DNA of 64,000 bases from IMG/VR virus record IMGVR_UViG_3300002026_000017, positions 1-64,000 of that record. The stretch is one strand, 5' to 3'. Below the pieces are notes generated by a model that saw only the letters and a program-made list of their open reading frames with translations, had not been told where the DNA came from and searched no databases. Source of the stretch: a virus. Lineage: Duplodnaviria > Caudoviricetes. The first letter of the stretch is position 1; every line of letters starts with the position of its first letter. Made by a program: the position numbers and the translations under genes. Shown in pieces: positions 42,653-57,504 of the stretch.

Positions 42653-44170
42653 TTATTTTTCTTGGATTAATTTTTCTAATTTTGGTATAATATTAAGGTA
42701 TATTTCTTCAGCATGACCTTTAAATATTTTTCTTTGTGCCAGTAATTTTTTTTCAACTCTAATAAAAACACCATCAGTCCTATTATCATATATTTGTCCT
42801 CTTGGTGTTAAAGTAAAATTTTGAGATTTATATTCTTGCCATTTTTTTTCTTCTTTTTCATTAATAGGTCTACCTAATTCCTTATCCATTATAAGGAAAT
42901 CAATTTTTCTTTCAGGTGAAATACCATTTGTAATCATTGAATTTGGATATAATCCAGAAAAATCAACACCAAGACCTAAATTAATAATTTTTTTAGTTGG
43001 TGATTTTACATAACCACCTTGATAAGGTCTTTTTGTTGTTTCATTAAATTCAGCTTCCAAAAAGAAAATATTTTCATTTCTTAATTCATTATATATTAAA
43101 GCTTCAGATATTGAATTTTGTGAAATTTTCATAAATGGAACTCCGTTAAAATAACTTTCAAAAAAATCAACATTATATAAATTAGTTGTTTTGTGAATTA
43201 ACATAACTAAAATAGTATCAATTAAAGCATAAGCAACAAATTTATTTGGATTTTCTCTATATAATGAACGTAAATTTCCATCATACATTATTTTATTTAA
43301 TCCAAGAATTAAATTAGCTATATTTGTAAGTGCATAAGAATCCAAACTATTATAGATTAATGAATCTTTAAATAATTGCATATAATCGATAATAATTCTA
43401 TGTGCTGGAAAATCTACAGTTATTTCACTTTCATCTCTTAATGTAAATTTTTTCTTAATAACTTTATGTATTGGAGATGCTTTTTTAATATCAATACCTA
43501 AATTCTTACATCTATTAAATATATAAACCCAATCAAATGTTGTAAAATTCCATCCTATTTGTGAATGTAAATATTTATCAACACATTCAAGAAAAACATT
43601 TAACATTTCAATTTCAGATTCAAATGTCCTAATTTTAAAATCATAAGAATATTTATCCTTATGTTCACCAAGACTTGAAAGTACCATATTTTTAATACTT
43701 TCTAAGTCATTATCTGTTATTTCAGTTTTTCTATTCGGATTTTTTAATTCAAATAAAATAGAGTTTAAATTAATATCTGTAAATGATATTGATAATATTT
43801 TATTTTCAGCTTTTTCAGGAGTTGAATACCCATATTCATCTGTTATATCTGTTTCAATATCAACTGAAAATGGATTTGGCATTAATAATTTAGATGTTTT
43901 TTCATAAATTAATGGTTGTTCATTTTTTAATTCATTATTAAAAAATTCATTAACATTATGATTACTAAAATATTTAGATGTTTCTCGCTTAATAAAACTA
44001 TTATTTTTAAATGAACGTAAATTTGGAATTATATCCTTATCAAAACTTTCAGCTTTAACATATTTATAATATCCAAATTTTAATGGTGATGTTATTATTT
44101 CTATTTGATTTTTTTCATTTACAAATGAAATATCAATAGATTCTTTATTTTGAGTATAATCAATAATCAT
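42653..44170 (-). CDS. gp43: DNA polymerase family B, N-terminal part (3'-5' exonuclease and motif A)
   Basis: VDIET (Exo I), GWNFTTFDW (Exo II), YALID (Exo III), YQGGYV..DFSGLYPNSM..GISPE. Confidence 0.9.
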   Translation of the reverse strand: MIIDYTQNKESIDISFVNEKNQIEIITSPLKFGYYKYVKAESFDKDIIPNLRSFKNNSFIKRETSKYFSNHNVNEFFNNELKNEQPLIYEKTSKLLMPNPFSVDIETDITDEYGYSTPEKAENKILSISFTDINLNSILFELKNPNRKTEITDNDLESIKNMVLSSLGEHKDKYSYDFKIRTFESEIEMLNVFLECVDKYLHSQIGWNFTTFDWVYIFNRCKNLGIDIKKASPIHKVIKKKFTLRDESEITVDFPAHRIIIDYMQLFKDSLIYNSLDSYALTNIANLILGLNKIMYDGNLRSLYRENPNKFVAYALIDTILVMLIHKTTNLYNVDFFESYFNGVPFMKISQNSISEALIYNELRNENIFFLEAEFNETTKRPYQGGYVKSPTKKIINLGLGVDFSGLYPNSMITNGISPERKIDFLIMDKELGRPINEKEEKKWQEYKSQNFTLTPRGQIYDNRTDGVFIRVEKKLLAQRKIFKGHAEEIYLNIIPKLEKLIQEK

Positions 44171-54483: not shown

Positions 54484-54888
54484 TTACTTAAATTTTGGTG
54501 TTTTTATTTTCGGAGCTTTAATTGAACCCATCATATTTTTTGATTGTCCCATCATTTTTTCATGTTCTTTTTGAACATCTGTATTTGTTCCATTCCCACG
54601 ATTATTTTCATCTTCTAAATATTTATTTAATGATTTACCAAGATTTGTGAATTTCCAAAATTCCATTTTTTCAATTTGTTCAAAAGAATTAGCAGTTTTA
54701 ACACTAATCATTATACATTCATCAAAATAACTTTCAGCAGATATTATTGATTGTTTATAAATTTCTGAAATTGTTGGAAATTCAATATTTTTTTGTTTTT
54801 CTTTTAAATAAATAGGATATATTTTATTCGAATATTCCTCCGAGAGCTCCTTTATCGATAAACATATTTTTCCATCCCCCGGGAAATT
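54484..54888 (-). CDS. gp51-like / T-domain tail assembly frame (first ATG at 54711; frame open from 54888)
   Basis: SYF...SFEQIEKMEFW..L...LEDEN resembles the gp51 S..EIE.M.PW pattern; overlaps end of upstream gene. Confidence 0.55.
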   Translation of the reverse strand, partial: NFPGDGKICLSIKELSEEYSNKIYPIYLKEKQKNIEFPTISEIYKQSIISAESYFDECIMISVKTANSFEQIEKMEFWKFTNLGKSLNKYLEDENNRGNGTNTDVQKEHEKMMGQSKNMMGSIKAPKIKTPKFK

Positions 54889-55786
54889 TTATAAGAGCCT
54901 CCTCCTCAGACTCCCTGTATGTATATACTATTTTTTCGTAATTGTTTAATTTCAATTTATTAATAATAGTTATGTAGGCATTCAACAATCCATCATTTTT
55001 TTGAATTTGTTTGAATTTTTGTTTTAATGATTCAATAGTTTCATTACCATTAACATATAAATATGGAGCTACTAATAAAAATTGTTTATCAAATGAATCA
55101 ACATTTTTAATTTTATCATTATTTTCTTTTTGAACCTCTTTATATGTTTTAACCATATAACGGAAAACTCTTGCAGAAATTTCTAATGTTGGAATTAAAA
55201 ATTTTATTGGTTCTTCTTGATTTTCAACAGTAATTGTAAATGTTCTTCCATCAAAACAAGAAAGCAATTTTTCATTTAATTCAGGATATTGCAATAATTC
55301 AGCTAATAATGAAACAGTTACAGATTCATTATGTGTTTGATTCATAACAATATATTGAATTGGTTTGTCATGTAAATAAAATTCTCTCAATTTTAAAAAG
55401 AAAAATAATCTATCACCATCATTTATTTGTGAAGAAGAAATTTCTCTATTTTTGTTTGAATCAACAATAACAAAACATTTTTTGATTAAATCTTCAACAG
55501 CTGCAATAATTGCTGGTTGGTCTTCTTCATTTATTGTAGAAAAATTTGCTACCTCCATACTTGTAGGACATCTGTAACCAAATCGCCATGTTTGTGGATA
55601 TAATAAACCTTCAAAAGGAAGTTCTTCATTTTTTAAAATACGATAACCATCAATCGCTGATGGTAATTTATATTCTCCTAAATATTCTCCTTCTTTAGTT
55701 TTTTCATTGTTTGAAGGATTATTAAATAATCCTTCTTCTGTTAATCTATTTTCAAGATTTTTTAAATTATCGGTGTTATCAGCCAT
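54824..55786 (-). CDS. Baseplate hub assembly / tail chaperone protein (gp26-like)
   Basis: LPFEG..YP..YR.PT..E....T, INDGDRLFFFLKLR and PT..I pattern of gp26-type proteins. Confidence 0.65.
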   Translation of the reverse strand: MADNTDNLKNLENRLTEEGLFNNPSNNEKTKEGEYLGEYKLPSAIDGYRILKNEELPFEGLLYPQTWRFGYRCPTSMEVANFSTINEEDQPAIIAAVEDLIKKCFVIVDSNKNREISSSQINDGDRLFFFLKLREFYLHDKPIQYIVMNQTHNESVTVSLLAELLQYPELNEKLLSCFDGRTFTITVENQEEPIKFLIPTLEISARVFRYMVKTYKEVQKENNDKIKNVDSFDKQFLLVAPYLYVNGNETIESLKQKFKQIQKNDGLLNAYITIINKLKLNNYEKIVYTYRESEEEALIKFPGGWKNMFIDKGALGGIFE

Positions 55787-56511: not shown

Positions 56512-57453
56512 TTAATCGGTTATTTCTATTTTATAATTATATAGAGCTAAATATGTTTTATTTGTTATTTCATTTATATATTTATCCACTAATAATTTTA
56601 TTTGTTTTTCTTTTTCTTCCTTATATTTAAGGAAAGCTTCTTCAACAGTATCAAATCTACCTAATTGAATATTTTTATTGTTAATAGATAATTGTGAAAT
56701 ATATTTGGTTATATTTTTACCTAAATAAACTGAAACGCCTATTGGATAATCTCCTCTATTAATATCATTTGCAACTAATAATGAATTTATTTCATCTGGA
56801 ACAAAACAACATGTAGCTGGACCATATATTTTATTACCTTTAAATAAAATATCTTTATCTAAATCGAAATTTTTTATTGAATTTTCATCATACCATTTAG
56901 AAAAATCTTGATAACAATGCCATCTTTCATCAATTATACAATCTTTATATGTTTTATTATTTAATTTCCAATTTTCATCATAACATCTTTGAAACATATT
57001 TCTCCAAATTTGATAAGTTTTATATCTTGCTGTATATATTCCCTTACCAAAATATCCAATATTATAAACAACTTTTTTATAACAAAAATTATCATTTAAA
57101 ACATTTCCATTTTCAATATTTTGAATCCTAACATTAGTTTTAATACTATTATCGGATAAAAATTTAACAGTACAATTATTTGGATTTTTATATTCCAATA
57201 TTTTTAAAACATCACCACAATTTTGTAAATATTCAAAATTTAATCTTTCTGATAATCTATTTTTATCTTTGAAATTTATTTTATCAAGTTTACCTCTTAC
57301 AATATTACCCCAATTAGCATTATATCTAATTGTATTATCTGATAAAAATTTAACTGTACAACTTCTTGAATTTAAATAATCAATAATCTCTATTTTTTCA
57401 CCATTTAACAATGTGAATTTTAAACCTATTCTTTCTAAAGGATTTACTTTCAT
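56512..57453 (-). mobile_element. Free-standing HNH-AP2 homing endonuclease
   Basis: WRNMFQRCY, IDERWHCYQDF, LDKDIL, YGPATCCFVP, YPIGVS..LGRFDTVEEA; duplicated N-terminal module; start refined to ATG 57453. Confidence 0.85.
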
Positions 57454-57456
57454 AAT

Positions 57457-57504
57457 ATGAAACATTTTTAGGATATAATTAGTTATTAACTAAAAATGTT
57501 TCAT
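57457..57504 (-). promoter_or_regulatory. 15-bp inverted repeat over the endonuclease translation-initiation region
   Basis: ATGAAACATTTTTAG-18 nt-CTAAAAATGTTTCAT, 3 nt before ATG 57453; TATAAATG overlaps its 5' end. Confidence 0.65.

Follow-up and report, generated by a model that had tools for sequence, protein, structure and literature searches.

Comparative evidence for a probable +1 frameshift at a conserved UUU_C site joining a gp26-like chaperone gene to a start-less reading frame in a jumbo phage

How a conserved open reading frame (ORF) without a start codon of its own comes to be translated is the question raised by a locus in the IMG/VR record IMGVR_UViG_3300002026_000017. The sequence analysed was a 64-kb window (positions 1 to 64,000; hereafter the window) of this 83.6-kb contig, whose estimated completeness of 36% implies a jumbo phage; the guanine-plus-cytosine (G+C) content of the genome is 23.6%. 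Here a gene for a gp26-like protein of 320 amino acids (gene A) is overlapped at its end by a second ORF (B) in the +1 frame, and an initial annotation of the window had proposed that a +1 (or −2) frameshift fuses the two. We consider it likely that gene A and the start-less ORF B are one recoded gene, which would yield proteins of 320 and 433 residues by a +1 shift at UUU_C. This reading is based on the anatomy of the gene, family-wide conservation of the frame relation, the UUU_C site, synonymous codon biases and the lack of start codons for B.

The +1 frame is open from position 54888 to a stop codon at 54486-54484 and contains no ATG before position 54711, as the initial annotation had described; GTG and TTG are lacking from this stretch as well. 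A one-base step at codon 302 of gene A gives, on conceptual read-through, exactly 433 residues without a stop (junction ...IKFPGDGKICLS...), so that the fusion originally predicted from a shift near FPGG has the anticipated length; comparison with homologues, described below, supports it. A −1 frameshift was rejected because the −1 frame is closed, ending after 12 to 15 codons.

An alignment-based scan identified 10 viral and 34 metagenomic loci related to this one, to which isolates and huge phages from GenBank were added; a scan of viral contigs with the single protein had found no related loci. In all 44 loci carrying the FPGGWK motif (32 distinct; G+C 23 to 53%), the +1 frame was open from the Phe codon of this motif through the stop codon of gene A into an ORF of 130 to 160 codons. 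In eleven loci the nearest +1 stop upstream was one codon away from the Phe codon, and in nine more it was two to four codons away. Thus, the open frame begins sharply at the Phe codon.

The same arrangement was found in nine more distant relatives: phages PAU, PTm1, pT24 and MA9V-2, four uncultured phages of 460 to 735 kb (L051-L054) and Prevotella phage Lak-C1 (L055). Their A proteins are 21 to 27% identical to each other and to that of the window. All nine have a B-like ORF in the +1 frame that is open from the Phe codon, and in two of them this frame opens one codon before it. B was therefore in the +1 frame in all 53 loci examined, and an X_XXY_YYZ heptamer was absent. An in-frame TTT_C was present at the homologous Phe codon in pT24, PAU, the four huge phages and Lak-C1, in the contexts RFPYG, VFPDG, QFPNG, TFPKG, TFQGG and NFQGG; in PTm1 an in-frame TTT_CAA occurs seven codons before the corresponding position, and the TTT_C of MA9V-2 falls on the conserved Phe that comes next. 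In both PTm1 and PAU, the overlap itself encodes the first conserved B helix (DIFSLIRVP and NIFSLIQLP, respectively), upstream of any ATG; this helix is better conserved than the overlapping frame-0 residues. Given that megaphages and huge phages carry both TTT_C and a +1 B-like ORF, sequence comparison indicates that the family is much wider than the clade of the window.

Start codons for B were sought among 28 distinct loci. An ATG preceded the B domain in only 4 of these, 7 had no ATG, GTG or TTG at all, and no start position was conserved at any site; the scattered GTG and TTG codons are by-products of frame-0 codons at nonconserved positions. The linker between the stop codon of gene A and the B domain comprised 445 codons over these loci, with no stops against 39 expected (10^−17.8). 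Conservation of the B protein began about 24 codons before the ATG at 54711, at about position 54783, which bears out the earlier impression that the conserved pattern precedes this ATG; the residue aligned with it is Ile or Leu in relatives such as L004. The ATG at 54711 is probably not the true N terminus of B. It is barely credible that B starts there as a protein of 75 amino acids, the upstream open frame and the G+C-rich island being by-products of FPGGWK: the ATG does align with the MMLQK start region of PAU, and the codons of FPGGWK are necessarily G/C-rich and unable to form +1 stops, but the conserved upstream codons, the absence of this ATG from relatives and the stop-free linker all speak against such a start, and the synonymous biases described below cannot stem from a protein motif. 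A HMMER search with the B profile returned 215 representative clusters, none longer than about 158 amino acids, with called N termini scattered over profile positions 1 to 76, as expected for an ORF that lacks a true start.

Residue F301 was encoded by TTT, followed by C, in 33 of 33 distinct genes and in 24 of 24 nonredundant loci, while six other conserved Phe columns were split roughly 60:40 (10 to 21 TTT versus 12 to 20 TTC). In-frame TTT_C was depleted threefold elsewhere in gene bodies (10 observed versus 29.3 expected), and codon 301 is the sole in-frame TTT_C of gene A in the window. The window itself reads TTT_CCC_GGG_G at 54886-54877, where the +1 frame gives TTC, CCG and GGG and hence the same amino acids, all of which had been correctly noted before. 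Of this longer slip element, however, only part stood up to comparison: UUU_C was universal and UUU_CCN was conserved, but the codons for G303 and G304 were free (GGA, GGT, GGC or GGG), and neither the G run nor CCC_GGG_G was conserved.

A frameshift by another route would end in an identical frame, with a protein that is almost unchanged. Candidates are a +1 slip of tRNAPro on CCC_G or of tRNALys on AAA_A at K306, a −2 slip on GGG_GGA, or transcriptional slippage. CCC_G occurred in 18 of 33 loci and has been proven to act as a +1 site in a phage of low GC content (PMC5009743), AAA_A/G followed a GGAGGA-like string by 3 to 4 nucleotides (nt) in AT-rich members, and a run of five G residues was found in the window alone. 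These routes are nevertheless quite improbable: P302 was encoded by CCA, CCT or CCG in 15 of 33 loci, K306 was AAG or CGT, unable to re-pair at +1, in 9 of 33, and only UUU_C was universal. AAA_A and CCC_G were accordingly rejected as universal slip sites, as was the downstream GGAGGA as a stimulator resembling that of prfB, since the codons at these places vary; the free variation at G303 and G304 means that neither the G run nor the downstream GGAGGA is selected. No conserved homopolymer was long enough for polymerase slippage, and the −2 alternative of the initial annotation fell away with the finding of no conserved re-pairing site for such a shift.

The end of gene A had been described as a G+C-rich recoding island, with 39 G+C in 88 nt at 54830-54917 by hand count. 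This count was exact; the window mean is 20.7 ± 4.9 per 88 nt, and only 0.06% of 88-nt windows, in three regions, reach 39. The codons singled out in the gene A tail (AGG, GAG four times, CCC, GGG and CTC) were likewise rare by window-wide counts (GAG 56 versus GAA 1376; CCC 17; CTC 9). Codon bias was then evaluated at 160 conserved columns in a codon alignment of the 24 nonredundant loci, each compared with the codon usage of its own genome. The eight most extreme columns all fell at residues 292 to 317. GAG was used at E294, E295 and E296 in 16 to 19 of 17 to 21 loci versus about 3 expected (P 1e-11 to 1e-14) and CCC at P302 in 13 of 24 versus 2.7 expected, the others being ATC at I310, GGG at G292, GGA at G317 and TTT at F301. 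Elsewhere in the gene, Glu columns were about 90% GAA and Pro columns about 5% CCC. ATC at I310, GGA at G317 and TTC at F319 are the synonymous choices that preserve Ser, Asp and Ser in the +1 frame. The frame-0 tail includes the invariant residues W305, K306 and F309. The codon patterns indicate that the island has two causes, the invariant FPGGWK protein motif with its G/C-rich codons and true synonymous selection; the recoding island of the initial annotation was therefore partly simply this motif.

Upstream of the site lies the purine-rich tract GAGGAGGAGG, which occurs once in the window and resembles a Shine-Dalgarno (SD) sequence; its placement 11 nt upstream of the slip site had been recorded correctly. 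An SD-like core 11 to 17 nt upstream of TTT was present in 22 of 24 nonredundant loci and in 7 of 7 distant relatives. A role for the tract as a ribosome-binding site for B was rejected, because this phage uses SD sequences in 1 of 68 genes and no start lies at a usable distance, and because many loci have a +1 stop between the tract and the Phe codon. (The SD core was sought at −20 to −4 of the 68 long ORFs of the window, whose start regions are A/T-rich.)

RNA structures around the site were weak or tentative. A small hairpin may present GAGGAGG in its loop: its 5-bp core was paired in 81% of cases over 29 distinct sequences, and its covariation was 0.42 versus 0.215 in shuffles (0 of 500), with values of at most 0.26 when the pairing was slid. 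This hairpin was derived from the same sequences, and RNAalifold does not predict it. As a downstream stimulatory structure, RNAalifold found only an invariant, weak UUUCC/GGAAA hairpin (−2.8 kcal/mol) without covariation, and the local fold of the window had z = 0.19. This UUUCC ... GGAAA pairing (54872-54886, minus strand) would join the slip site to the Trp-Lys codons through 5 bp with an 8-nt loop; it is beyond a covariation test because all of its positions are invariant for protein reasons.

In the proposed mechanism, most ribosomes would remain in frame 0 and terminate at 54826-54824, releasing the 320-residue gp26-like hub or tail assembly chaperone, while a fraction would shift to the +1 frame with UUU (F301) in the P site. 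There tRNAPhe (anticodon GAA) would give up its wobble pairing on UUU and re-pair with UUC as the A site awaits the rare CCC codon. Shifted ribosomes would pass through the linker into the helical B domain, producing the 433-residue A-B protein. The likely stimulator would be the conserved GAG-rich, SD-like tract 11 to 17 nt upstream, possibly displayed on the small hairpin; its role is uncertain, as this spacing is not the geometry of prfB. By analogy with lambda gpG/gpGT and T4 gp26/gp51, a core acting on the hub or tape measure would be common to the short and long forms, and the long form would contribute a further binding module, present at a constant low ratio. That ribosomes slip here, how often they do so, what the tract does and what B does are all inferences from sequence.

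Several observations weigh against a frameshift. The evidence for it is wholly comparative. Natural in-frame A-B fusions were found neither among 165 homologues of A (at most 365 amino acids), nor in a search of longer proteins with B, nor among the 215 B clusters. The common codon CCA replaces the rare CCC in about a third of loci, and the weak UUUCC/GGAAA hairpin could be an alternative reason for keeping TTT. The overlap was free of +1 stops in 23 to 100% of synonymous resamplings per locus (joint 10^−2.7); since the open overlap is thus mostly forced by the frame-0 protein, our case does not rest on its openness. A sliding-window scan of synonymous identity did not pick out the gene A tail, unlike the column-wise codon test, which did. 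The homologue alignment that had been suggested as a check was positive for the three conserved GAG codons, the SD-like core and the column-wise bias, and null for the sliding window. In E. coli, an SD sequence spaced 11 to 17 nt from the P-site codon favours −1 rather than +1 shifting. Ribosomes of Bacteroidia, moreover, largely ignore SD sequences, their anti-SD being sequestered, yet prfB sites in these bacteria often keep an SD (PMC10798248).

A last point of this kind concerns separate starts. The closest relatives, L014 and L015, have an ATG 4 and 7 nt, respectively, after the stop of gene A, and PAU has a canonical AAGGAG-N3-ATGATG there. In some lineages, separate synthesis of B is probably possible as well. 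We nevertheless think it unlikely that there is no frameshift and that B is a separate small protein throughout, started at or near the A stop by termination-reinitiation or from a noncanonical codon. Candidate starts for such a protein would be AUA at +4 in the window and L004 (AUG in L014 at this position) and, in the 'GYFD' clade, AUU at −8. Most loci do have an ATN or TTG codon within about 12 nt of the A stop, and for T4 gene 26 an additional product, 26', is annotated that is initiated internally in the same frame. However, an ATN codon near the stop is expected anyway in DNA of 23 to 30% G+C, no candidate start is conserved, and in L039 and L044 the stretch from −12 to +18 nt contains no candidate. 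Virtually all genes of the window phage start with ATG. In PTm1, PAU and the huge phages the first conserved B helix is encoded upstream of both the A stop and any ATG. A separate B also leaves unexplained the universal TTT, the CCC enrichment and the GAG bias at three codons 60 to 90 nt upstream of the stop, together with the overlap codon choices that preserve +1 residues and the sharp boundary of +1 stops before the Phe codon. Homologues without the slip site and with an ATG of their own for B had been named as the contrary outcome; homologues were found to keep the site, mostly with no such ATG. As judged from these alignments, the cluster of synonymous codons and the start-less downstream ORF, always in +1 and always open, go beyond chance, and the +1 frameshift at UUU_C is the reading followed below.

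The identity of gene A is supported by its relatives and by its predicted fold. The 320-residue protein of the window itself had no Pfam match at E ≤ 0.1 or E ≤ 1. Protein searches found the 165 homologues mentioned above, and those 46 to 54% identical to the window protein matched PF12322 (T4_baseplate, the gp26/gp51 family) over profile positions 15 to 211 of 219: P0099 scored 31.6 bits (profile 15-210), P0082 26.7 and P0035 25.5, with a gathering cut-off of 24.5. Seven of 42 family members examined matched this profile. An AlphaFold model of gene A (predicted local distance difference test score [pLDDT] 82.5) gave 44 Foldseek matches in BFVD at E ≤ 1e-3, among them models annotated as 'Baseplate hub subunit' and as 'Baseplate hub assembly protein, bacteriophage T4-like' (E 1e-7 to 1e-4). 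The C-terminal motif G-[WL]-K-x-x-F of the family is also present in the tail of T4 gp26, which ends ...CPECGK...GLKEFFELL, the same architecture as the family tail CxxCGSEEE...FPGGWKxxF. In the window, gene A ends ...SEEEALIKFPGGWKNMFIDKGALGGIFE*; G-W-K-N-M-F is present, and in the window's lineage the CxxC pair (a zinc ribbon) usual in homologues is replaced (Y..YR). CxxC lies just before SEEE, and column 291 is Cys in 25 of 33 genes. By Pfam matches in close homologues and by model fold, gene A is supported as a distant member of the hub-chaperone family of T4 gp26/gp51, and the label gp26-like can be retained. Alignment of A with T4 gp26 or gp51 alone by hhalign was negative although Pfam and fold show the relation; negative hhalign results are therefore uninformative here.

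B has no comparable assignment. Its model (pLDDT 69) has six helices, and it is homologous to the +1 ORFs of PTm1 (93%) and PAU (61%); searches of Pfam, PHROG and BFVD folds gave no match. T4 gp51 is a paralogue of gp26 (BLASTP 2e-6), in which PF12322 covers residues 1 to 201 and is followed by an extension of about 48 amino acids (about 202-249). The B profile scored −0.1 bits against T4 gp51 in hmmsearch, and hhalign of B with a 31-sequence gp51 alignment gave a probability of 0.1%, by the method that also misses the real relation between A and gp51. PF28602, a marker of gp51 homologues, was not reported on a Pfam scan of T4 gp51 itself. With homology to the gp51 extension undetected by Pfam, hmmsearch or hhalign, the label gp51-like that the initial annotation had given to B could be kept as an analogy only.

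Frameshifting is conserved in the tail assembly chaperone (TAC) genes of long-tailed phages, with lambda G/GT as a known case (Levin 1993; Xu, Hendrix & Duda 2004; reviewed in PMC5009743). As in lambda, the downstream ORF overlaps the end of the first without a start of its own, the frame relation is conserved, and neither form is expected in the virion. Gene A lies in the tail module, with the sheath gene and a putative tube gene on one side and a putative tape measure gene on the other, from which it is separated by ORFs of 619 and 105 amino acids. Unlike lambda, where the shift is −1 on an X_XXY_YYZ heptamer, the site here is +1 at UUU_C, and the 320-residue protein belongs to the gp26/gp51 family, while TAC families are of about 100 to 140 amino acids; no TAC family of Pfam or PHROG matched A or B. 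From the sequence features, we regard the locus as probably a further form of this known tail-chaperone device.

T4 gp26 and gp51 are hub assembly chaperones (PMC3004832). Gene A is homologous to them, by PF12322 in close homologues and by fold, and its family has the zinc-ribbon and G-L/W-K-x-x-F tail of T4 gp26, of which the window protein keeps G-W-K-N-M-F; T4, too, has a short form (gp26) and a long form (gp51) of the same fold. Unlike in the window, T4 genes 26 and 51 are separate and divergently transcribed, gene 26 ends with neither a +1 ORF nor TTT_C, and the extra product 26' arises by in-frame internal initiation.

Closer parallels to the slip itself are found elsewhere. Influenza A PA-X is made by a +1 shift at UCC_UUU_CGU (PMC3498833), where P-site tRNAPhe likewise exchanges UUU for UUC and the zero-frame codon that follows is often rare (CGU in PA-X, CCC here); it differs in its eukaryotic ribosome, RNA virus and unrelated products, and no upstream purine-rich element has been reported. 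Listeria phages PSA, A118 and A500 shift +1 at CCC, and in the PSA genome 5% of Pro codons are CCC (PMC5009743). They resemble the shift proposed for the window phage in being +1 recoding events in a low-GC genome with a rare CCC, but PSA shifts on a Pro codon beside a stop or pseudoknot. The prfB genes of E. coli and Flavobacterium shift +1 at CUU_UGA with an SD (PMC5009743, PMC10798248). As at the locus studied here, an SD-like element precedes the shift site of prfB, where it is kept even in SD-blind Bacteroidia; in prfB a stop codon occupies the A site and the SD lies 3 nt away, while the A-site codon here is Pro or Gln and the tract is 11 to 17 nt away.

If the frameshift is real, the principle of short and long forms controlled by frameshifting would extend to the T4 gp26/gp51 hub-chaperone family, and there would be a reason why both gp26 and gp51 are required in T4, the phage that has been reported as the exception among long-tailed phages, whose short/long chaperone pairs are otherwise under frameshift control. 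The locus would also represent, for bacteria and phages, the UUU_C type of +1 site seen in influenza PA-X, with an unusually clear comparative signature in the alignments (invariant TTT, three GAG codons and the rare CCC). Since the hosts are probably Bacteroidota with SD-ignoring initiation, the site could be used to test the action of the anti-SD in elongation. A wider scenario, which we hold to be possible but doubtful, is that a short/long pair of gp26-fold hub chaperones is ancestral in a very large group of contractile-tailed phages and was originally made by recoding, that the UUU_C shifts from PAU and Tenacibaculum phages to Lak megaphages and the 460- to 735-kb phages represent one device resembling G/GT, that T4 26/51 is a resolved form of it, and that the SD-like tract stimulates elongating ribosomes of Bacteroidia, in which the anti-SD is sequestered at initiation.

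No paper on a frameshift in the gene A homologue of PAU, PTm1 or related phages was found in the literature. The deposited B ORFs of cultured relatives (Table 1) are hypothetical proteins of 41 to 73 amino acids, each called from an internal ATG or TTG, and these calls leave an unexplained gap or overlap after the gp26-like gene. They are probably truncated calls of the frameshift extension; if so, annotations of cultured jumbo phages, Lak megaphages and huge phages would need correcting.

Table 1. Positions of the features discussed (in the window unless a locus is named)
Feature	Position	Strand	Basis or remark
Gene A	54824..55786	(−)	320-aa ORF, frame 0; short product, a gp26-like assembly chaperone of the baseplate hub/tail
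Predicted trans-frame product A-B, 433 aa	54484..55786	(−)	Junction ...ALIKFPGDGKICLS...
Lost CxxC region, gene A residues ~286-291	54911-54928	(−)	Alignment
Tentative small hairpin, GAGGAGG in loop	54893..54915	(−)	8-bp stem in minimum-free-energy fold of the window
Purine-rich SD-like tract GAGGAGGAGG, candidate frameshift stimulator	54898..54907	(−)	11 nt 5' of UUU
Proposed +1 shift site UUU_CCC (F301-P302)	54881..54886	(−)	UUU_C conservation, codon bias
Overlap, both frames	54824..54888	(−)	Frame 0 ...FPGGWKNMFIDKGALGGIFE*; frame +1 FPGDGKICLSIKELSEEYSN...
Variable linker of +1 ORF, after frame-0 stop	54784..54823	(−)	No start codon; poorly conserved, length varies
B domain and stop	54484..54783	(−)	Conserved small all-helical domain, low-complexity spacer, basic tail (...KAPKIKTPKFK)
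First ATG of +1 ORF	54709..54711	(−)	Inside conserved domain; gene-caller start
Putative tape measure ORF, 1201 aa	48682-52287	(−)	Size and position; many repeated hydrophobic segments
Deposited B call, PAU gp94	L002 6896-7033
Deposited B call, PTm1 ORF-023	L001 6896-7018
Deposited B call, MA9V2_060	L049 2159-2335
Deposited B call, BPT24_131 (pT24)	L050 2096-2317

The surroundings of the locus were those of a tail module. A tail sheath gene (phrog_34521) and a tube-sized ORF of 196 amino acids lie upstream of gene A, and ORFs of 619, 105 and 1201 amino acids lie downstream of A and B; in MA9V-2 an ORF of 1083 amino acids directly follows B. Pfam and PHROG searches gave no match for the 1201-residue ORF, and a named family was found neither for it nor for the tube-sized ORF. 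The gene order fits tail tube, chaperone and tape measure, the tube and tape measure being putative assignments. Cultured relatives of gene A come from phages of Tenacibaculum, Chryseobacterium, Flavobacterium and Prevotella (Lak), plus one Sphingomonas phage; from these hosts and the SD-poor starts, the host of the window phage is probably of Bacteroidota type. An HNH-type homing endonuclease gene of 317 amino acids (56512-57465, minus strand; phrog_953, E 5e-57) interrupts the tail module, separating the tube-sized gene from the region of the chaperone. Farther away, an ORF of 505 amino acids (42653-44170, minus strand) matches a family B DNA polymerase in the exonuclease domain only (PF03104, E 8e-13).

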